DNA of 64,000 nucleotides, taken from NCBI GenBank assembly GCA_964346665.1, contig CAYFVC010000026.1:18197-82196 (forward strand), read 5' to 3'. The notes beneath the pieces are model-generated. The model was not told the origin of the DNA. It was given only the letters and a program-made list of their open reading frames with translations, and made no database searches. This DNA comes from an uncultured archaeon (GTDB lineage Archaea > Aenigmatarchaeota > Aenigmatarchaeia > QMZP01 > QMZT01). The position numbers and the translations under genes are program-made. Position 1 is the stretch's first letter. Each line of letters begins with the position of its first letter. Below are positions 4,763-59,618 of the stretch, piece by piece.

Positions 4763-5532
4763 CGGCTCAAAACCTTCAACATTTTCTTATGCAAATATTT
4801 GTTCGCTGCAAGAATGCTTGATCTCTTCATTTCGAGTGGCTTCCCTTCAGTGGTTGTAACGATTCCGCCTGCCTCTTTCGCTATTGAGGAAGCGGCAGCG
4901 AAGTCCCATGGTTTTAGAACAAATTCCCAGTAACCATCAACCCTTCCGCACGCTACGTAACATAAATCAAGTGCTGCCGATCCTGATCTCCTTATGCCAT
5001 GGATACCCTCATAAAAAAATTCACCTATCTTCTTTAGTGTAATATTCATCTTTTGATCTCTGAAGTAATAAAACCCCGTATTTAGAAGTGAATTTTTAAG
5101 GTCTTTGTTTTTCGAAACTCTTATCCTTTTTCCGTTGAGGTACGCTCCTTTTTTCGCAAGAGAATGGAACATCTCCTTTCGCAAAGGATCGTAAACAACC
5201 CCCAGTTCCTGTTTGTTCTTCCTTACCAAGGCAATGGAAACGCAGAAGAATGGATAGCCGTGCATGAAATTCGTCGTCCCGTCAAGTGGATCGATTATCC
5301 AAAGGTTTTCGGAGTCACCTTCGCTTCTCGTTCCCTCTTCCGAAATTATTCCGTGACTTGGGAAATTCTTTCTTATTAGGGAGGTTATCAGTTTCTCTGA
5401 ATTCTTGTCCGTGTTTGTAACGAAGTCTATCTTTGTTTTGAAGTTTATTATCCTCCTTGTTTTGAATTGATTTGTTATCAACTTTCCGGCTTCTTTCGCC
5501 GCATGCATAGCGACTGAAAGCTCACGTGGCAT
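4759..5532 (-). CDS. suhB: Inositol monophosphatase / fructose-1,6-bisphosphatase family protein
   Basis: WIIDPLDGTTNF and the following GYP..SIAL motif are the IMPase/FBPase-IV metal-binding signature. The start was chosen at MPRELSVAMHAAKEAG to avoid overlap with cutA. Confidence 0.8.
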   Translation of the reverse strand: MPRELSVAMHAAKEAGKLITNQFKTRRIINFKTKIDFVTNTDKNSEKLITSLIRKNFPSHGIISEEGTRSEGDSENLWIIDPLDGTTNFMHGYPFFCVSIALVRKNKQELGVVYDPLRKEMFHSLAKKGAYLNGKRIRVSKNKDLKNSLLNTGFYYFRDQKMNITLKKIGEFFYEGIHGIRRSGSAALDLCYVACGRVDGYWEFVLKPWDFAAASSIAKEAGGIVTTTEGKPLEMKRSSILAANKYLHKKMLKVLSR

Positions 5533-5563
5533 GTAACGCATACTTGGTATGCGTCTTTTGAAA

Positions 5564-5875
5564 TTATTTTGTTTCATCCTCGATCCACTTCGTGTACTCT
5601 TTCGAACCTCCGATAATGGGGAGAGCGATGATCTCAGGGTTTTCGTATTGATGTACTTGCTTAACCCTTTTTATGAGTTTCCTCAAAACCCTTTTCTTCG
5701 TCTTCACCATAAGAAGGACTTCATCGCTTTCGTGTATCTTACCGCTCCACCAGAAAAGGGATGTGAGATTTGGAAGGATGTTCACACAAGCTGCCAGCCT
5801 TTCTTTCAACAAGATATCGGCTATCTTTTTCCCGTCCTTCGCATCAGGACACGTTATAAAAACAACTAGGTACAT
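5564..5875 (-). CDS. cutA: Divalent-cation tolerance protein CutA
   Basis: 103 aa; ..AACVNILP...S.FWW.GKI..E.L.VKT.. is the CutA1 pattern. Confidence 0.8.
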   Translation of the reverse strand: MYLVVFITCPDAKDGKKIADILLKERLAACVNILPNLTSLFWWSGKIHESDEVLLMVKTKKRVLRKLIKRVKQVHQYENPEIIALPIIGGSKEYTKWIEDETK

Positions 5876-5883
5876 GACAAAAC

Positions 5884-6567
5884 CTATTCTATTAGAGTTC
5901 CCACAAATTTTTTCCTATTTATCGCATTTTTAATGTTCTTGAAATCCTTTCCGTTAAGCACGATCGTTTTGATCCTGATATGTTCAAGAAGTTTCGCCGC
6001 AACGGGGTCCATTATGGTAATGGGACCTGCCCTGTGTTTTTTAACCTTCACCATTTTATGAAGTTCTTTTGCGCTTATTTTCTTTAGCATTTTCGCACCC
6101 TTGTGTTTGTCAGGATCCTTGTTGTAAATTCCCTTCACATCAGTTCCGATTATTATCAGATCCGCTTTGAAGAATTCACCTGCCGCTACGCTTACAGCAT
6201 CCGTTGTCTGTCTTAGAACAGTTCCTCCCATCACGATTACCTTCCCTGATTTTATCGCTTCTTCCAGGCGCTCTTTGTTCTTCACAAGTCTGTTGTATGC
6301 GTGTTTACCCAGAGCGGAGATAAGGATCATCGCATTCATCCTCGTCCCGAGTATGCCTATGAAATCGAGTGTGTCCTCGTCTGGTTTGAAAGTCCTTGCA
6401 GCCTCTATGTAACTCTTCGCCACCATTCCTCCGCCTGTCACCACTATAATCCTGTGTTTTTTTCTTTTCAGGTCAATGATGAATTTCGAGAACTTCTTCA
6501 TGTAATTAAGGTCTGGCGTTCCTTCAGGACACAAAACCGATCCGCCTATGTCGAAAACTATCCGCAT
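5884..6567 (-). CDS. pyrH: Uridylate (UMP) kinase, archaeal type
   Basis: MRIVFDIGGSV N-terminus and VVTGGG, amino-acid kinase fold; start taken at the second Met (MRIV). Confidence 0.85.
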   Translation of the reverse strand: MRIVFDIGGSVLCPEGTPDLNYMKKFSKFIIDLKRKKHRIIVVTGGGMVAKSYIEAARTFKPDEDTLDFIGILGTRMNAMILISALGKHAYNRLVKNKERLEEAIKSGKVIVMGGTVLRQTTDAVSVAAGEFFKADLIIIGTDVKGIYNKDPDKHKGAKMLKKISAKELHKMVKVKKHRAGPITIMDPVAAKLLEHIRIKTIVLNGKDFKNIKNAINRKKFVGTLIE

Positions 6568-7526: not shown

Positions 7527-8030
7527 TTATTCTTTTTTTCCAGCCTTTTCTCGTTTCAGCATATTCTTGAGCTTTCCGTCTATCTCTTCGCTGTATTCGA
7601 TTTCGAGGGATTTCCTGTAACTTTTCTTCGCTAGCTCGTAATCCTTTATCTTTTCGCTAGCCTTTCCTATAATGTTGTAACACCATTGTACAATGTACAT
7701 GGAATTGGATTTAGAAAAATATTTTTTCGCTTTCATCGCGAAGTTTATCGCATTGTTGAAGTCGTTGAAAGCGAAAGAATGATCAGCAGCACATTTGTAG
7801 GACCATCCAGCTTTGAAATTATTCCCCAGTTTCAGGCTGTATCTTGCCGCATCCATGGAGAAGTCCACCGCTCGCTTGTCGTTAATCGAGCCCGCAAGCC
7901 TAGCGGACTCCTGATATAGAGAAACCGCTTTCGAATAATCCTCTCTATCAACCGCTCTCTTTGCTTTCTTCACCAGCTTTTCTATTTCCTTTTCTATCCT
8001 CTTCCTATCTTTCTCATTCGTTTCAGGCAT
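7527..8030 (-). CDS. TPR-like repeat protein
   Basis: Repeated A/Y/W-rich helical 34-residue-like units (..AVSLYQESARLAG.., ..KAGWSYKCAADHSFAFNDFNNAINFAMKA..); charged N-terminus. Confidence 0.45.
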   Translation of the reverse strand: MPETNEKDRKRIEKEIEKLVKKAKRAVDREDYSKAVSLYQESARLAGSINDKRAVDFSMDAARYSLKLGNNFKAGWSYKCAADHSFAFNDFNNAINFAMKAKKYFSKSNSMYIVQWCYNIIGKASEKIKDYELAKKSYRKSLEIEYSEEIDGKLKNMLKREKAGKKE

Positions 8031-8074: not shown

Positions 8075-9211
8075 TTACATCCCAAGCTGTTCTCCCCATT
8101 CCTCGTATTTTCGAATGGTTTTCTCGTCCACCGTTCTCTTCACCTTGGAGAAGGAGCGATCAAAATCTTCCTTTGTGAGCGATCTGTAATTCATGGCATA
8201 TTTTTCGATTTGCGCAGGCGTCAGCTCCTCAAGCTTCGGGTTTTGTTCCCTAACCATGAGCATTATCGCTTCCCTGCAGACACTTGCTATGTCCCTTCCA
8301 GAATACCCCTCGCCCATTTCAGCTAGTTTATTTATTGTGATCTCAGCAAGCGAAACCCCTTTCAAATGGATTTCAAAAATCTGCTTTCTTGCTTCCAAAT
8401 CCGGGAGGGGAGTGTAAATCCTTCTTTGGAACCTCGAAACCATAGCATCGTCGAGGTCCCATGGTTTGTTCGTGGCCGCTATCAGTATGACCTTTTCATC
8501 GGGTTCGGTGGCGAAACCCTCTATCTCCATGAGCAATTGGGAGACAACTCTCCTTGTGGATTCTTGAATGCCCGAATCCCTGCTAATCATCACAGAATCA
8601 AACTCATCCATGAAGATTATCGAAGGCTGGCTCTTTCGAGCCTTTTCGAACAACATACTCACTATTTTAGAGGACTCCCCGAAGTACTTCGAAAGCAAAG
8701 TGGAAGTTCTCGCCTCGAAAAAGTTAGCTTGCAGGGTGTTGCTCGCCGCTTTTGCCAGCAATGTTTTCCCGGTTCCCGGAGGGCCGTAAAGAAGAATGGT
8801 TCGGGGGGCTTCCACGAAATCTGGTTTTTTGTGTATCATGGGGAGTATTATTGCTTCCTTTACCTCCCTTTTCACTTCCTCCAAACCCCCTATATCATCC
8901 CACTTAACCGTGGGTTTTTCTGAGATAACCATACTGTCTATCGCCTCCGGAGACTTCGCACGTGTATAAGGGGTGGTCGAGCTAATCACATTGCTCATTG
9001 TCTCGTATTGGGAGGCAGATTGAAAGAAAGATTCTGCGTATTCCCTCGGGGCGACATAAGCAAGCCTTCTGTAGATCGAGGCCGCTCGTTGGTAATGAGC
9101 TACCGCCTGCTTGGATTTCCCCTCTGATTCGAGCTTTTTCGCGGTATCGATTTCGTGCTGTAATTGTTGCTTTAAAAGTGAATGCCTAAGTTCTCCCATA
9201 AATATCACCAA
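8075..9211 (-). CDS. cdvC: Vps4-type AAA+ ATPase with N-terminal MIT-like domain (CdvC-like)
   Basis: Walker A ILLYGPPGTGKT, Walker B IIFMDEFD, and an N-terminal three-helix MIT-like segment (..QAVAHYQRAASIYRRLAYVAP..). Confidence 0.8.
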   Translation of the reverse strand: MVIFMGELRHSLLKQQLQHEIDTAKKLESEGKSKQAVAHYQRAASIYRRLAYVAPREYAESFFQSASQYETMSNVISSTTPYTRAKSPEAIDSMVISEKPTVKWDDIGGLEEVKREVKEAIILPMIHKKPDFVEAPRTILLYGPPGTGKTLLAKAASNTLQANFFEARTSTLLSKYFGESSKIVSMLFEKARKSQPSIIFMDEFDSVMISRDSGIQESTRRVVSQLLMEIEGFATEPDEKVILIAATNKPWDLDDAMVSRFQRRIYTPLPDLEARKQIFEIHLKGVSLAEITINKLAEMGEGYSGRDIASVCREAIMLMVREQNPKLEELTPAQIEKYAMNYRSLTKEDFDRSFSKVKRTVDEKTIRKYEEWGEQLGM

Positions 9212-9221
9212 AGAGAAAAAA

Positions 9222-9842
9222 TCACTCTGTTTCCTTCTCTGCGGATTCCTCTGTCATCTTCTTCGCTTTCTCTCCAGCTATCTTCAAAGCTGTCTCTTCA
9301 TCGACTTTTTCTAAATCGTCTATCGCATGTATAAGTTCCTGTGATTCCTCATCGACCAAGACCTCTTCTTTTCCGAAAACCCTTTCCAGTTTCTCCTTTA
9401 CCTTGTCCAGCCTTCCCTCTTCCAAAGCTTCCTTTACGTCCTCGTCCGTTAGAACCTCATTGAGCTTGTTCATGTCACAATTAAGTATATCTTTTGTAAG
9501 TTCTGACTCTTTCTCCGTTTTCTCTCTTTCTTTCATGGCCTGTACGAGCATGATGAGCTGGAGTTCGCGCAGGAAGTGACAAGCTTCCATCTGCTTCGTT
9601 CGAGATTCGAGCCTCAATGCCTTTATCTTCTGCACATTCAGCATTTTCAGCGTGGTGGGCTGCCCTTTCGCTTCAAGCATTAACTTCTGGATTTTCTCCG
9701 CTATGCCTTTCAGATCATCCGAAATCCTCTCAACTTCCTTTTCTATCCTTACCCTCTCCTTAAAGAGATCGTCGTCCTTTATCGAAAAAACATCCTTCCC
9801 GAACCTCGACATGATGAATTTTTTAAGATCCATAATCCTCAC
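9222..9842 (-). CDS. cdvB: ESCRT-III / Snf7-family protein (CdvB-like)
   Basis: About 200 aa, predicted helical, basic N-half and acidic C-half (..EEVLVDEESQELIHAIDDLEKVDEE..) as in Snf7/CHMP proteins; lies directly upstream of the Vps4 gene on the same strand. Confidence 0.55.
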   Translation of the reverse strand: MRIMDLKKFIMSRFGKDVFSIKDDDLFKERVRIEKEVERISDDLKGIAEKIQKLMLEAKGQPTTLKMLNVQKIKALRLESRTKQMEACHFLRELQLIMLVQAMKEREKTEKESELTKDILNCDMNKLNEVLTDEDVKEALEEGRLDKVKEKLERVFGKEEVLVDEESQELIHAIDDLEKVDEETALKIAGEKAKKMTEESAEKETE

Positions 9843-9887
9843 CTTTTTACCTTGATATTTATTTTGACAAGTTTTAAATATAAAAGT

Positions 9888-12800
9888 ATGAAAAAAGCGT
9901 TTCTACTCTCTCTTGACGCTATAGCCGCCATAACATTGTTATTTGTGATCTCGCTGTTTCTAGCAGGTTTGTCATTCACTTATGCCTCTCCAGAACTACG
10001 CTATCAAAGGTATTATTACGCAGGGAAAGACTTGGCAAATATCCTTGAAGAAACGAGAATAAAAGCAGTTTCCGATATAGTGAATCTCGGTGACTACGGA
10101 TTGGGTGAGGATGATATGAACAGGACTATCTTGGATGTAATAGGCTCTTTCTGGGCAGAAGGAAACATAAGTTACGCGAGGAATCTCACGAAGGAGATAT
10201 TCGAAAATGTCATGAACAGGACAGGACTCAGTTACGAGATTATGTTCGATGGGGACTCGATATACTCGAGTGGGGAATATTCGGACTTTCTTTCGAGACT
10301 CTCCACGATAGTTTCGGGTTATGAGAAAACCAAGCCTGTGAACGGTTATCTTGCAAAGGTTTACCTCACAAAGGTTAGTAAGTCCAATTCATATTTTTCG
10401 TATTTCGGAGGTTATGTGGGCGACGGTAACGTAACGAAAATCATAATGCTTCCTTCGGACGTGAACGTAACTAATTTTTACATGGAGATGAATGTGGGAA
10501 ACAACTTCACACTCTACATTAACGGGAACTTTTCTGGGAACTACGAAAAAACGAAAGTTAACTTCTCCGCGGACAACTGGACTGTATGCTCCGTAACGAT
10601 CAACCCCGCGTATTGCTCGTATTTCACAGGAGGGAACAACACGGTGGAGATAAAATTCAAGGAAAATGTAACCAACTACATAGGAGGAGGGTATTTGAAA
10701 ATCAAATACAAAACCTCGGAGTTGACAGAAGGTGAATACATTTACAGCGGGGATACAAGGATTGGCAAATATTATTTCCCCGGGATAAATGGCCTGATCA
10801 ACCTCTATTCCTCATTTTACATACCCGGTACGCTGAACAACATAAGCGTACGCCTCCACTACTTCAACAACCTGAGCTTTAACAATGTAGGGATCCCTGT
10901 GTATTTCGTGATAGGAGCGGAAGAAGTCTATAAAAGCAACGAGACCGGAGAACAAGACATATATATAAACGATTCTAACATATCCGAGATCTTCGGAGGT
11001 AAAACAACTCTAATAGAAATATTAAGCAACGCCACGATCCCAATAAGATTCGGAACGGAAACATTCGCTTTCCTAGGAGGTAAGGGCTCTAGCGATTCAG
11101 TTTTAATAACTGATGTTTCGGGGAGTATGAATATGACATGTGATGTTCAAACCACTGCATGCCTACACCCTGACTGCAACTCAGGGACAAGTGGCTGTCA
11201 GAACTGGAGAATAGATGTAGCGAAAGATGTTGATAAGGAATTTGTTGACACCATTATCAACTACACAGGTTGTAGGGTTGGTCTTGTAAATTATTCCACA
11301 AGTGTTCAAGAAACCCATCCCTTAAGCAATGACAGTGCTTCCCTAATATCCCACATAGACGGGTATAGGGCATCGGGGATGACATGTATATCATGTGGTA
11401 TAGCAAGTGCAACGAATATGTTAGTAAATTCAAAAGTCGTTAAAACCGTTATCCCTTCCAAATCATCTTGGCTATACAACACAAGCTTCCCTTCAAGTGA
11501 TCCTCCAGACATTAACGGCACCAATTGGACTTGGCATAACTACACAGATTCAGGATGGAATCAAGGACAGGCGATACTTGGTTTCGAGAATGACCCTTAT
11601 TCCCCGAACATTAACACAAATATAGGAAACAACGGAGGAAATTATTACTTCAGGAAACATTTCAACATAAGCGATCCAAATGATATAGATTTCGGAGAAC
11701 TATACGTCCTTTCTGATGATAACGCTGAAGTTTATCTTAACGGGAATCTAATAAATAACGATACAGAGGAGCACAACGCAACCTATTGGAACAAGGGAGG
11801 GACCCTTTTCTATGATGACTTCGAGAGTTATTACGGGCCTGGAGCATACCAAGTTGACGGAACTGATCTTAACATGTCTCCTGGCTACTGGTTCATAGAT
11901 GACACAGGGGAGGAAGTTTTCATGATGTGTGATCAGTCAGACTACCCATCACATAGCGGAACAGATGTTCTGGTTTTCAGGCAAATGGATTCATATGGTT
12001 ATGCGGAAACTCATTTGAACCTGTCTGGTAAATCGAACCTTGTGTTTTCTTATTGGTGGAGGGCTGGAACCAACCGATTCGAAAGCAGCGAGTACGGTGA
12101 TGTCTGGATATGGGATGGTAGTTGGCAAAGAGTCAGGAGGTATTCCAGAGAGGAAAATTACGGTGAATACCATCACGATGAAATAGATTTATCTGGTTAC
12201 AATATGATAGAGAACTTCACAATAAGATTCGGTTCAAGATCGAGTTATGATAGTGAAAGGTTTTACGTGGATGATGTTAAAATAAGGGAAAGTATAATTG
12301 TGGATAAAACATATCTTCGAAAAGGGGACAACGTCATAGCAGTGAAACTTCGAAATAACGACAATGATAACGCGAAATTCGATCTGGAGCTTAATTTGAC
12401 TATGAAAAGGTATAAGGCGATGTTGGTTATGAGTGATGGGGAGGCGAATAGATGTGTTCCAGGAGTGAGCTGTAGCGGTCTAGCAGATAACCAAGCAATA
12501 GACAAGGCGTGTGAAGCCAGGGATAATTACAGCATAACCGTGTATTCTGTCGCTTTTGGTGATGGAGCAGACATGGACACGTTGGAGAGAATTGCATGTT
12601 GGAATTGTTCTGCGGATGATTGGATCCCTGGCTGCGACAATTTCTACAACAGCTCGAATGCAGAAGAATTGAAGGATATTTACAAGGATATAGCTGAGAA
12701 CATAGCAAATGCGACTTATGAGGCGCAGATTTTCAACATTACCGGGAACATCTCACTGGACAACATTCTCTATCCAGATTCTTTCATCTCGTTCAACTAC

Positions 12801-13640
12801 ACGCCTATTGTCAAATCACTGGAATACGGGGAGATAACTCTAGGGTTTGAATCTCCAAGGTTGAGGGAATCAACAGGCGAAACCATGATAACGGATAACG
12901 AAACGGGAACGAAAGAAGGGTGGTTCATAATTCCGAGTAACACAGAGGTTGTAACAGAGGTTCTTGATTCGAAAATAACCTCGTATTCCTCATTCTACTG
13001 GACAGACAGGTTGTGGGTGAACTCTTCAAACACGCCTAATCAGAATTGGACAAGGGTTTATTGGTTAGGGAACTATTCGGATGATTACGAAGAAGTTGGC
13101 GACCCATATATCATACAGATTCCTCCTAACTTTCTCAAACCTGGAGGTAACAATTCCTTCAAGATAGGGACAGGTATTTATCCGTCCCCTGAAGGTGGTT
13201 TAGGTGGTTCGCCAGATGATAGGGTGATTTACACCATTGGGATTATCGGAGTAACTTTAATAGAATACAGTGATATTTTTCCTAAGGCCAAAGGCTCAAG
13301 ACCAACGATATACTACGATTCGAATGGGGACAACATACCGGAGAGTTCCGTGACCGTGGAAGTGGGACCTGATCCGGATGATGTATTCGATCCTCAGAAT
13401 GATTCAATTGATAACGGATTTATGAAGCTTATGAATGCTTTGAACTTCATAAGTGATCTGAACCCGAATGTTGTTGATCTTAATCACACCAGCTCTGGTC
13501 CTACAGGAACCGGTGACGGCTCTGATAATAATCCGATTGATCTCGAAATCACAGAAGAGGTTGAATTCAAATCGGATTTCATATCCCAGATTCCGTCCAT
13601 GTGGGGTCCTGCTATAATGGAGGTGAGGATATGGGGGTAA
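9888..13640 (+). CDS. Giant (about 1250 aa) extracellular protein with vWA/MIDAS motifs, N-terminal membrane anchor or class-III-like signal, heavily N-glycosylation-sequon-rich
   Basis: MKKAFLLSLDAIAAITLLFVISLFLAG N-terminal hydrophobic segment. DxSGS MIDAS motif (VLITDVSGSMNM) near aa 410 and the second vWA half (AMLVMSDGEAN...TVYSVAFGDGAD) near aa 850. Dozens of N-x-S/T sequons. Confidence 0.7.
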   Translation: MKKAFLLSLDAIAAITLLFVISLFLAGLSFTYASPELRYQRYYYAGKDLANILEETRIKAVSDIVNLGDYGLGEDDMNRTILDVIGSFWAEGNISYARNLTKEIFENVMNRTGLSYEIMFDGDSIYSSGEYSDFLSRLSTIVSGYEKTKPVNGYLAKVYLTKVSKSNSYFSYFGGYVGDGNVTKIIMLPSDVNVTNFYMEMNVGNNFTLYINGNFSGNYEKTKVNFSADNWTVCSVTINPAYCSYFTGGNNTVEIKFKENVTNYIGGGYLKIKYKTSELTEGEYIYSGDTRIGKYYFPGINGLINLYSSFYIPGTLNNISVRLHYFNNLSFNNVGIPVYFVIGAEEVYKSNETGEQDIYINDSNISEIFGGKTTLIEILSNATIPIRFGTETFAFLGGKGSSDSVLITDVSGSMNMTCDVQTTACLHPDCNSGTSGCQNWRIDVAKDVDKEFVDTIINYTGCRVGLVNYSTSVQETHPLSNDSASLISHIDGYRASGMTCISCGIASATNMLVNSKVVKTVIPSKSSWLYNTSFPSSDPPDINGTNWTWHNYTDSGWNQGQAILGFENDPYSPNINTNIGNNGGNYYFRKHFNISDPNDIDFGELYVLSDDNAEVYLNGNLINNDTEEHNATYWNKGGTLFYDDFESYYGPGAYQVDGTDLNMSPGYWFIDDTGEEVFMMCDQSDYPSHSGTDVLVFRQMDSYGYAETHLNLSGKSNLVFSYWWRAGTNRFESSEYGDVWIWDGSWQRVRRYSREENYGEYHHDEIDLSGYNMIENFTIRFGSRSSYDSERFYVDDVKIRESIIVDKTYLRKGDNVIAVKLRNNDNDNAKFDLELNLTMKRYKAMLVMSDGEANRCVPGVSCSGLADNQAIDKACEARDNYSITVYSVAFGDGADMDTLERIACWNCSADDWIPGCDNFYNSSNAEELKDIYKDIAENIANATYEAQIFNITGNISLDNILYPDSFISFNYTPIVKSLEYGEITLGFESPRLRESTGETMITDNETGTKEGWFIIPSNTEVVTEVLDSKITSYSSFYWTDRLWVNSSNTPNQNWTRVYWLGNYSDDYEEVGDPYIIQIPPNFLKPGGNNSFKIGTGIYPSPEGGLGGSPDDRVIYTIGIIGVTLIEYSDIFPKAKGSRPTIYYDSNGDNIPESSVTVEVGPDPDDVFDPQNDSIDNGFMKLMNALNFISDLNPNVVDLNHTSSGPTGTGDGSDNNPIDLEITEEVEFKSDFISQIPSMWGPAIMEVRIWG

Positions 13641-45946: not shown

Positions 45947-46061
45947 CGGGCCTGGGGGGATTCGAACCCCCGACCTTTAGCTTAGGAGGCTACTGCTCTA
46001 ATGTCGATCGTCAAGGATACAAATCCTTGACATTTGAAACTTCCAACTGAGCTACAGGCCC
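45947..46061 (-). tRNA. tRNA-Arg (anticodon CCU) with a putative intron of about 41 nt in the D-loop
   Basis: On the minus strand: GGGCCUG-UA-GCUC-AGUUGG[intron]UA-GAGC-A-GUAGC-CUCCUAA-GCUAA-AGGUC-GGGGG-UUCGAAU-CCCCC-CAGGCCC-G. Acceptor and T arms are perfect, U33 and A37 are present, and removing AAGUUUCAAAUGUCAAGGAUUUGUAUCCUUGACGAUCGACAU restores a canonical D-arm GCUCAGUUGGUAGAGC. Position 27:43 is a G.A mismatch. Confidence 0.6.
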
Positions 46062-58220: not shown

Positions 58221-58481
58221 TTAAATTATGTCCTTTTCCGTTACTATTACGAAATCTCCTACTGATTTCACTGCAGAGAACGGAACGAGAACCCTTCCTT
58301 TGTCATCTTCCTGCAGATTGAGCTCGGTTGTGTGCTTGGTTGGCTGTACGAGAACTAGGTTTATGAGCTCACCCGATTCTATAATGTAATCAAGATCTCC
58401 TACAACTCCAAATTTCTTCCCGCTTTCCTCCGAAACGAGAATTTTTCCTACGAGGTCCCTGCTTCTTATTCTCTCTTCCAT
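58221..58481 (-). CDS. PRC-barrel domain protein
   Basis: 86 aa with ..LVGKILVSEESGKKFGVVGDLDYIIESGELINLVL.. typical of PRC/RimM-like barrels. Confidence 0.5.
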   Translation of the reverse strand: MEERIRSRDLVGKILVSEESGKKFGVVGDLDYIIESGELINLVLVQPTKHTTELNLQEDDKGRVLVPFSAVKSVGDFVIVTEKDII

Positions 58482-58538: not shown

Positions 58539-59618
58539 TTATGCATCCACCATCAATGTCCTAATCTTATCTGATAACGTGTATTGATAGCTTTTTCCCC
58601 TCTTTTTCCTCATCACCATGCCCTCTTTCACGAGCCTTTTGACTATGTTGTTTATTGATCTTATTGCATTGTCCCTGCTCTTGTAGCCTTCCAAATTCAT
58701 TTTCTCAACTATTTCCTTTGGCGTCGACTCCCCGTATTTACCTAGTATCTCAAGGATGTCCCTCTGTTTTGAAGGCAGAGATTTCACGGATTCAAGTGAA
58801 ACCCTTTTAGGCGAAGTGATTTCAGAATCCTTGAGGAAATTCATGTCTATGGTTGATATGTTGTTTTCCATCGCCTTCTGAACGAGGTCGTTACACATCC
58901 TTATGACCTCCCTAGGGAAGCCTCCTGTCTTTTCATATATACGTTCGATAGTCTCTGAGGTGAATGGTTTTATATCATCCCCTCCTGCCCATTCTATCCT
59001 TTTTTTAATTAATTCTCTTGTTTCCGATTTTGTTAGACTTGCGAGCTCAACCCTTGTATTCACTCTTCTCCTGAAAGTTTCAAGGTTATCATTAAGGGTG
59101 GATTCCAGAACGGGCAGACCTGTGATGACAACAGAGAGGTTATCTATTTGGTCCGTTAGCGTTCTTAGCCATTCAAGCGTCTCTATGCCTGCCTCGTGAC
59201 TTTCGTCCACAAGCATAACCACGTTCGAATTCTTCATTTTTTTGTTCACCCATTCACTCAAATTGTATAGATTGATATCTTTTCTGCGTGAAAATAATCT
59301 TTCAAATACCCCTAACCCTATGAAGTTTGCGAAGACCTTCACCCAATCCTCGGGGTCATTTGGAGGTTTGGAAAGGTAAAAAATTATCCTATCCTTTTCA
59401 AAGTTTTTCATCAAAAACTTCAGGAGTGTCGTCTTGCCTGAACCCGTGGGACCGATAAGAAGGGATAACTTATCGTTGTTCTGTATGCCGGTTAGTATTC
59501 TTTCTGTTTCCTTCATGTATCCTACGAAAAGATCAGGCAATATCTTGAAACTGAATGGATTCTCTCTCCAGTTGAATATCTTCACATACCTTTCATTGAA
59601 ATTCATTTCCGAATTCAT
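58539..59618 (-). CDS. AAA+ ATPase with C-terminal winged helix (Orc1/Cdc6-like or related)
   Basis: Walker A LLIGPTGSGKTTL, Walker B VVMLVDESHE, and a C-terminal wH (..ILEILGKYGESTPKEIVEKMNLEGYKSRDNAIRSINNIVKRLVKEGMV..); the N-terminal ..ENPFSFKILPDLFVGYMKETERI.. resembles the Orc1 N-terminal region. Confidence 0.45.
   Translation of the reverse strand: MNSEMNFNERYVKIFNWRENPFSFKILPDLFVGYMKETERILTGIQNNDKLSLLIGPTGSGKTTLLKFLMKNFEKDRIIFYLSKPPNDPEDWVKVFANFIGLGVFERLFSRRKDINLYNLSEWVNKKMKNSNVVMLVDESHEAGIETLEWLRTLTDQIDNLSVVITGLPVLESTLNDNLETFRRRVNTRVELASLTKSETRELIKKRIEWAGGDDIKPFTSETIERIYEKTGGFPREVIRMCNDLVQKAMENNISTIDMNFLKDSEITSPKRVSLESVKSLPSKQRDILEILGKYGESTPKEIVEKMNLEGYKSRDNAIRSINNIVKRLVKEGMVMRKKRGKSYQYTLSDKIRTLMVDA

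Follow-up and report, generated by a model that had tools for sequence, protein, structure and literature searches.

The DNA analysed here (a stretch of 64,000 nucleotides, hereafter the window) comes from an archaeon of the Aenigmatarchaeota, a member of the DPANN superphylum. At 8075..9842 it carries two adjacent genes whose products we compare with ESCRT-III and with the AAA ATPase Vps4. On balance, we read this locus as probably a minimal ESCRT-III/Vps4-type membrane-remodelling module, conserved across Aenigmatarchaeota. The upstream gene, designated X (9222..9833, minus strand), encodes an all-helical protein of 203 amino acids, a candidate for a highly divergent ESCRT-III-like subunit. 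The downstream gene (8075..9199, minus strand) encodes a Vps4-like AAA ATPase of the 'meiotic' clade, 374 amino acids long. Close homologues of both proteins all come from metagenome-assembled genomes (MAGs) of Aenigmatarchaeota. The initial annotation had described two open reading frames on the same strand, with X upstream of the ATPase, and this arrangement holds, both lying on the minus strand. However, the starts had to be moved. The reading frame listed for X begins at a GTG at 9842 (206 amino acids), whereas 32 homologues set the start at the ATG at 9833 (MDLKKF...); the ATPase starts at an internal ATG at 9199, giving a product with 100% identity to database protein P0148. As the homologues place both true starts at internal ATGs, the spacer between the two genes is 22 nucleotides (9200..9221, minus strand) and not the 10 first proposed.

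X and the ATPase form an operon. Their junction reads TGA-TTTTTTCTCTTTGGTGATATTT-ATG, with a run of six T directly after the stop codon of X and a GGTGA Shine-Dalgarno-like motif 5 nucleotides ahead of the ATPase ATG. Oligo-T tracts are able to terminate archaeal transcription, so expression of the ATPase could be attenuated relative to X by the T run that precedes its ribosome-binding site. Gene X has its own Shine-Dalgarno motif, GGTGAGG, 3 nucleotides before the ATG, and a TATA-like element, TTTATATTT, lies about 45 nucleotides upstream. The AT-rich region of 54 nucleotides that separates X from the divergent gene on its other side (9834..9887) is a putative bidirectional promoter.

The ATPase matches the Pfam families AAA (6.6e-40), AAA_lid_3 and Vps4_C (PF09336; 34.1 bits, cutoff 21.3). 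Its AAA core lies at 8405..8797 (minus strand), with the Walker A motif GPPGTGKT and the pore loop SKYFGES, and the Vps4_C-type C-terminal helix region at 8081..8242 (minus strand). Katanin and spastin references reach 30-34 bits on Vps4_C, so this family marks the 'meiotic' AAA clade and not Vps4 alone. The best NCBIfam model is CdvC (NF041006), aligned over the full length with 257 bits, followed by Cdc48 with 248 bits. The CdvC score is well short of the equivalog cutoff of 650 bits, while a genuine CdvC reference obtains 698.7 bits; domains of the classical clade (PAN, FtsH, p97 D1 and D2) reach only 132-202 bits on the same model. In the PDB, katanin p60 (228 bits) and Vps4 (207 bits) are the highest-scoring single-domain hits, while Cdc48-D2 reaches 177 bits.

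In the region of 8405-8797, the ATPase has a second region of homology (SRH), ATNKPWDLDDAMVSRFQRRIYTPLPD, with the pattern of Vps4, katanin and CdvC and without the two-residue RPGR.D insertion of Cdc48 and PAN. It contains the motif 'PW..SRF', present in 116 of 117 family members, where Ser replaces the first Arg of the 'RR' arginine-finger pair of Vps4. Judged by sequence, this substitution is a clade signature of the Aenigmatarchaeota ATPase family. Two distant ATPases, at related loci L072 (3636-4841) and L074 (965-2020), also carry Ser for Arg (SRF) in the SRH. In a small neighbour-joining tree built on the AAA region, the ATPases of Aenigmatarchaeota form a single clade (100% bootstrap), which groups with Vps4, CdvC, katanin and spastin and apart from p97-D1/D2, PAN and FtsH (85% bootstrap), as a basal branch outside CdvC. 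The Vps4-type identity proposed at the outset is thus borne out by Vps4_C, by the SRH and by this bootstrap value, and the grouping with proteasome-activating or Cdc48-type AAA proteins that the initial annotation had set as a refutation is not seen. Makarova et al. (2024) define Vps4 (arCOG01307) by a MIT domain or by ESCRT neighbours (PMC10936438), and the present ATPase falls within this definition. It is a new member of a known family, Vps4, in a lineage where that family has barely been noted.

The MIT-like domain just mentioned is a three-helix domain formed by residues 1-74 of the ATPase (8978..9199, minus strand). Its structural model superposes on the MIT domain of Sulfolobus acidocaldarius CdvC at 1.8 Å over 73 of 74 residues, and comparison with other MIT proteins gave 9.7 for MITD1, 9.3 for LIP5/Vta1, 9.2 for katanin p60-N, 9.1 for yeast Vps4 and 9.0 for VPS4A. 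The similarity is weak at the sequence level: the MIT region of the CdvC model is matched with an E-value of 0.0054, hhalign gives 8.7% in the correct register, and the Pfam MIT profile does not match the ATPase. The fold of the model supports the MIT-like helical N-domain that had been suggested. Known ligands of MIT domains are the tails of ESCRT-III proteins, through interactions between MIT and MIT-interacting motifs (MIMs).

Protein X belongs to a narrow family. We collected 242 matches, all from Aenigmatarchaeota and annotated as 'hypothetical', apart from some labelled UPF0335 by JGI, and a HMMER search of 1.84e9 representative proteins returned 27 cluster representatives only. The AlphaFold2 model (mean per-residue confidence, pLDDT, of 71) is all-helical, with no C-terminal winged helix of the CdvB type. 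It begins with a short N-terminal helix, followed by a hairpin of 36 and 45 residues (pLDDT 80-93), by short helices of low confidence, and by two well-conserved C-terminal helices. From the homologue alignment and hhalign, we distinguish a basic and hydrophobic N-terminal segment, MDLKKFIMSRFGK (9795..9833, minus strand), where F11 and G12 are invariant. The long alpha1-alpha2 hairpin (residues ~20-55 and ~60-104; 9522..9776, minus strand) has a conserved 'AKGQP' tip with Gly57. The acidic C-terminal helix pair, QELIHAIDDLEKVDEETALKIAGEKAK (residues ~162-194; 9252..9350, minus strand), is a candidate alpha5/MIT-interacting region; its conservation is 0.85-0.87 per block of 10 amino acids, its hydrophobic moment 0.45 and its pLDDT about 85, and it contains the conserved motifs LxxAIxxL and VDEETAxxxAxEKAK. 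The polarity from basic N-terminus to acidic C-terminus noted initially is confirmed, with a net charge of +5 in residues 1-107 and -16 in residues 108-203 (family means +6.8 and -13.3), so that the N-terminal half is only mildly basic and the C-terminal half strongly acidic.

Is X a member of the ESCRT-III superfamily? The Pfam Snf7 profile (PF03357, gathering score 27.3 bits) did not match X at E<=1, nor any of 10 distant relatives, and an NCBIfam scan of X returned no Snf7 or PspA match; the same Snf7 model scores six reference ESCRT-III sequences at 60-198 bits. Profile-profile alignment was made with hhalign, using these six Pfam-validated ESCRT-III paralogues as the template. With the default alignment, the probability was 8% for the whole X family and 31% for a divergent subgroup. 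When the template was aligned in the context of 96 homologues, the divergent subgroup reached 74% in local mode (123 columns) and 85% in global mode (195 columns), and the whole family 41% and 67%; leave-one-out templates gave 24-81%. A template made of 96 ESCRT-III sequences, dominated by CHMP2A, lowered the probability and did not raise it. Overall, the divergent subgroup obtained local probabilities of 10-81% and global ones of up to 85%, the whole family obtained 1-67%, and no value exceeded 90%.

Every one of these alignments is colinear and in register, a given position in X corresponding approximately to the same position in ESCRT-III. Real scores were 33.6-39.9 local and 31.4-36.9 global, against maxima of 18.1 and 14.0 for 45-47 reversed and rotated decoys (probability below 1%); reversed templates and unrelated helical families likewise remained below 1%. 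Comparison of X with E. coli PspA gave 0.2-0.4% with a single PspA sequence, and PspA as a positive control (0.2%) was uninformative. Three landmarks fall in register in the alignments. The invariant N-terminal ..FGK of X faces M..LFGK/R of ESCRT-III; the hairpin tip AKGQ places its Gly at 57, compared with 54-58 in all six references (KKGQ, KQGQ, TKGN, etc.); and D.DKL of X is matched to DIDKV where alpha4 begins. Together, the profile, motif, architecture and charge data are moderate evidence for a very remote homology between X and ESCRT-III, and not a proof. From architecture, motifs, profile-profile alignment and pairing with the ATPase, X is probably a very divergent protein of the ESCRT-III superfamily; at best, it is a new, highly divergent variant of ESCRT-III.

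The pairing of the two genes was followed in 61 loci from species-level genomes, of which 54 inform on the downstream side of X. In 24 of these 54, the ATPase comes next on the same strand, no more than 200 nucleotides from X, and in 12 others it comes after an unrelated inserted gene, for a total of 36 of 54, covering X identities of 48-93%. We considered the inserts of 500-800 nucleotides between X and the ATPase as possible components of the system and rejected them, as they encode a methyltransferase, NUDIX hydrolases and other unrelated genes. In MAG JAFGCI01, X and the ATPase are both present and unlinked (L008, L056), and in L009 the pair reappears in a different neighbourhood. Two proteins only about 20% identical to X (P0136 and P0142, in L072 and L074) are each followed, 15-17 nucleotides downstream and in unrelated contexts, by a Vps4-like ATPase with 41-47% identity to that of the window, the same SRF in the SRH and a MIT-like N-terminus. 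No other evidence for a joint function of X and the ATPase is as strong as this conserved pairing, which extends to relatives at ~20% identity. In L072, the gene 3' of the pair (4883-5746) encodes a membrane protein with zinc ribbons and an Ig-like domain; a zinc ribbon 'SPWCPECQKYKG.QAECPHCGN' ends this product and recurs at the end of the next gene (5840-6340).

Downstream of the ATPase come, in order, a TPR protein, a small membrane protein on the opposite strand, ribosomal protein L15e, UMP kinase and CutA. The TPR protein (7527..8030, minus strand; TPR_8, 24.6 bits), whose presence beside the pair had been correctly reported, has 167 amino acids and is a truncated version of a longer protein found in relatives, with 56% BLASTP identity to residues 6-161 of the long form in L004. 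The long form (571-582 amino acids; L004 7820-9553, L005 7870-9615, L006 7814-9529, L008 7119-8867) combines a TPR/alpha-SNAP-like module, two Ig-like domains and a C-terminal domain that ends in a duplicated 'I(I/K)DSVVQR(S/T)' motif. It follows the ATPase in many loci, including L008 where X is absent, and the TPR-only truncation is common to the window and its closest relatives (L011, L013 and L014). The similarity of the TPR module to alpha-SNAP is weak (E-value of 2e-4 in L008, below the Pfam threshold). We regard the TPR-module protein as a probable third component or adaptor.

On the other side of the pair, a giant gene (9888..13640, plus strand) encodes a protein of about 1250 amino acids with a VWA domain (Pfam VWA, 2.2e-07) and an N-terminal hydrophobic anchor. 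It lies divergently upstream of X in 37 of the 55 loci informative on this side, 11 of which lack the adjacency of X and the ATPase. The VWA protein is thus a conserved neighbour of X, and its membership of the module is uncertain. A pilus operon following this gene was considered and rejected, the downstream genes being VanZ, a KH protein and ABCE1, of a housekeeping nature. Further away in the window, at 45947-46026 (minus strand), Rfam calls a tRNA with 34.7 bits (gathering score 29) while ARAGORN reports none in the 64 kb; this could be an archaeal tRNA that is atypical or contains an intron.

Several results weigh against an ESCRT-III-like X that works with the ATPase. Neither Snf7 nor PspA_IM30 (PF04012) matches any of 32 members of the X family, even at E<=10, so that the Snf7-like identity given to the 206-residue protein fails on the profile test by which the initial annotation had itself proposed to refute it. 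The search of 1.84e9 proteins met no annotated ESCRT-III and no bridge to a named family, no ESCRT-III came up when three X-family profiles were compared with all PDB sequences (the top matches, to GapR, Rpt1, designed repeats and EF-hands, are spurious), and Foldseek found nothing significant for the X model in the PDB. The hhalign probability depends on the template: other alignments, built from the same sequences or from more, bring it down to 1-31%, and for the close X family taken alone it stays below 1%. The ESCRT-III template and the references of the small neighbour-joining tree were entered by hand and validated by hidden Markov model (HMM) at the family level only. Residues 110-162 of the X model are of low confidence. 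A check of the C-terminus for a MIM-like motif, suggested initially, showed neither a canonical MIM1, for want of the central Arg, nor a proline-rich MIM2. Finally, in one Aenigmatarchaeota clade (X identity of about 54-62%) X has no adjacent ATPase, and X adjoins the giant VWA gene at least as often as it does the ATPase.

Alternatively, X may be unrelated to ESCRT-III and be a lineage-specific coiled-coil or helical-hairpin protein dedicated to a Vps4/katanin-like unfoldase, as its substrate, adaptor or regulator, for instance a filament or scaffold outside membrane scission; the resemblance would then stem from generic hairpin geometry and compositional bias. We find this rather unlikely: the alignments are consistently colinear, in register and far above the reversed decoys, three landmark motifs match in position, the size, charge polarity and modelled helix order of X match ESCRT-III, and the partner ATPase bears a MIT-like domain, of which ESCRT-III tails are the known ligands. 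Another idea is that X is a nucleoid-associated DNA-binding protein of the GapR/UPF0335 type whose adjacency to the ATPase is incidental. NCBIfam GapR (E-value 0.017), PDB 6cfx (0.054), Pfam GapR_DNA-bd (9 of 32 members, best 0.0023) and the label UPF0335 given by JGI to some members point in this direction, but all these matches are below family thresholds (15.3 bits for NF052541 against a cutoff of 140; PF10073 below its gathering threshold even at the best E-value) and cover about 44 residues around the 'AKG' turn (X residues ~31-74). With hhalign, GapR obtains 4-4.5% against the X family and 0.8% against its divergent subgroup, much less than ESCRT-III does; moreover, X is more than twice as long as GapR (~89 amino acids), and its conserved pairing with a MIT-AAA ATPase would be left unexplained. 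The recurrent GapR/UPF0335 (DUF2312) matches at the AKG turn are probably a local coincidence, and a GapR-like role for X seems to us very improbable.

The initial annotation saw in the pair the archaeal Cdv module, that is CdvB and CdvC, which would make it the cytokinetic scission machinery of the organism. A Vps4-type ATPase does adjoin an ESCRT-III-like gene, CdvC is the best-scoring NCBIfam model, and no FtsZ signature was found in the window or in related loci totalling 0.69 Mb, a coverage too small to inform on whole genomes. Against this, no CdvA (PRC barrel plus coiled coil) is adjacent to the pair, as had been noticed at the start, X lacks the C-terminal winged helix of CdvB, the ATPase falls far below the CdvC cutoff and branches outside CdvC, and X and the ATPase are unlinked in one clade. 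The only PRC-barrel gene, also pointed out initially, is located 48 kb from the pair (58221..58481, minus strand; Pfam PRC, 25 bits, cutoff 21.2) and encodes a stand-alone protein of 86 amino acids. It is of the small stand-alone type associated with FtsZ/SepF division (PMC10120694). It adjoins a gene at 58539-59618 (minus strand) for a 359-residue AAA_22/ATPase_2 and winged-helix protein of Orc/Cdc6-like architecture; in related locus L003, a small PRC-barrel gene is found about 1.2 kb from X. Furthermore, FtsZ-based systems are reported from 93.2% of DPANN genomes (PMC8407392), DPANN are described as FtsZ dividers (PMC7617429), and Makarova et al. argue for a role in sorting or vesiculation, rather than division, of ESCRT systems that exist alongside the FtsZ machinery (PMC10936438). 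A Cdv system at this locus is therefore quite improbable, and a Cdv-type division role for the pair unlikely. An anti-phage defence system (Iet-like or other AAA-based) made of X, the ATPase and the TPR protein is barely credible: the ATPase matches PADLOC IetA (144 bits) and NCBIfam IteA (138 bits), but these scores reflect generic AAA similarity and are below those of CdvC and Cdc48, PADLOC matches neither X nor the TPR proteins nor the giant protein, and the module is single-copy, phylum-wide and surrounded by conserved housekeeping genes (L15e, UMP kinase, CutA), whereas defence islands are patchy. Of the first description, the reading frames, charge polarity, AAA ATPase with a helical N-domain and TPR flank survive, while the starts, the spacer and the Snf7 identity by HMM do not; of its interpretation, the Vps4 and MIT parts stand, the ESCRT-III-like part probably does, and membership of the Snf7 family and of a Cdv division system is abandoned.

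Considered as an ESCRT-III/Vps4-type module, the locus has its nearest known counterparts in the minimal archaeal ESCRT systems found outside TACK and Asgard, such as that of Thermoplasmata, made of Vps4, ESCRT-III and one extra protein (PMC10936438). Both are operons of two to three genes combining an ESCRT-III-like protein, a MIT-AAA ATPase of the Vps4 family and a lineage-specific third component, and both coexist with, or are independent of, FtsZ. An Ig-like partner, as in the euryarchaeal 'adaptin-like IG' ESCRT systems, recurs here in the long TPR-Ig form and in the third gene of L072. However, the locus is here that of a DPANN archaeon, from a superphylum with no reported ESCRT-III (PMC7619361, PMC10117752), the partner X is undetectable by the Snf7 HMM, the ATPase has Ser for the first Arg of the SRH, and the third component is TPR/alpha-SNAP-like with two Ig domains, instead of a beta-barrel, winged-helix, FHA or adaptin protein. 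The crenarchaeal CdvA-CdvB-CdvC system shares the ESCRT-III-like gene directly upstream of a Vps4-type ATPase with MIT, and differs by its CdvA, by the winged helix and proline-rich MIM2 of CdvB, and by its CdvC proper.

Like eukaryotic ESCRT-III (Snf7/CHMP), X has about 200 amino acids, an N-terminal 'FGK', a K-G-Q/N hairpin tip at about 55-58, a 'D.DK(L/V)' at the start of alpha4 and a basic N-terminal and acidic C-terminal half, and aligns colinearly over up to 195 columns; unlike it, X shows no similarity at the HMM level and has no canonical MIM1 Arg in its C-terminal helix. Like the archaeal enzymes, the ATPase is devoid of the beta-domain of eukaryotic Vps4. PspA/Vipp1 (PF04012) differ from X by the absence of any PspA_IM30 match and by the pairing of X with a Vps4-type ATPase, PspA systems having no such partner (PMC7619361). 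The TPR-like helical module 3' of the ATPase, with its weak similarity to alpha-SNAP, recalls NSF/alpha-SNAP and suggests an adaptor of an AAA unfoldase; unlike NSF, the ATPase is single-ring and Vps4-like, and the likeness is a functional analogy only.

How might such a module work? X would be a highly divergent member of the ESCRT-III superfamily, or a convergent analogue. Its short basic and hydrophobic N-terminal segment may contact the membrane, while the alpha1-alpha2 hairpin would form the core of a polymer, and the conserved helices of the acidic C-terminal tail would keep X autoinhibited as well as recruit its partner. The ATPase, co-transcribed with X, is predicted to act as a Vps4-like hexameric unfoldase, its MIT-like three-helix bundle binding the C-terminal helices of X and its pore loops (SKYFGES) pulling X subunits out of the polymer, which would lead to turnover, membrane constriction and scission. 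The downstream TPR/alpha-SNAP-like protein, with its Ig-like domains where present, would probably serve as an adaptor or as a selector of cargo or site. Since FtsZ is general in DPANN and CdvA is missing here, a role in vesicle formation, membrane repair or remodelling at host contacts is most likely, rather than primary cytokinesis; the argument of Makarova et al. on coexistence with FtsZ equally makes a non-division role in membrane remodelling more likely here.

Reviews place ESCRT-III homologues in every major archaeal lineage except DPANN, from which ESCRT proteins are said to be absent, and Cdv proteins in only three of the four superphyla (PMC7619361, PMC10117752, PMC8970359). The most comprehensive survey, that of Makarova et al. 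(2024), does not mention DPANN in its main text, and its supplementary file 8 lists arCOG01307 Vps4 proteins from two Woesearchaeota and from Parvarchaeum ARMAN-5 ('DPANN group'), which stand near the beginning of the tree order and receive no comment in the text; that supplement contains no DPANN ESCRT-III and no Aenigmatarchaeota (PMC10936438). We put forward, tentatively, that Aenigmatarchaeota and the organisms of L072 and L074 hold an unrecognised, deeply divergent branch of ESCRT-III, which evolved together with a basal Vps4-like MIT-AAA ATPase. In that event, all four archaeal superphyla would possess ESCRT-III/Vps4, and an ESCRT system in the last archaeal common ancestor would gain in plausibility; the DPANN gap would be closed, with an independent, early-branching data point for the ancestral archaeal system. 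Snf7 and PspA HMMs would then overlook at least one family, which comes to light only through context, structure and profile-profile methods. The locus would also offer a candidate for membrane remodelling in ultra-small episymbiotic archaea, in vesicles, repair or host-contact structures. Because X is persistently linked to a giant VWA surface protein and a TPR+Ig adaptor figures in the module, the latter might remodel the membrane at the contact site between symbiont and host or make vesicles, a use of ESCRT that would be specific to DPANN.

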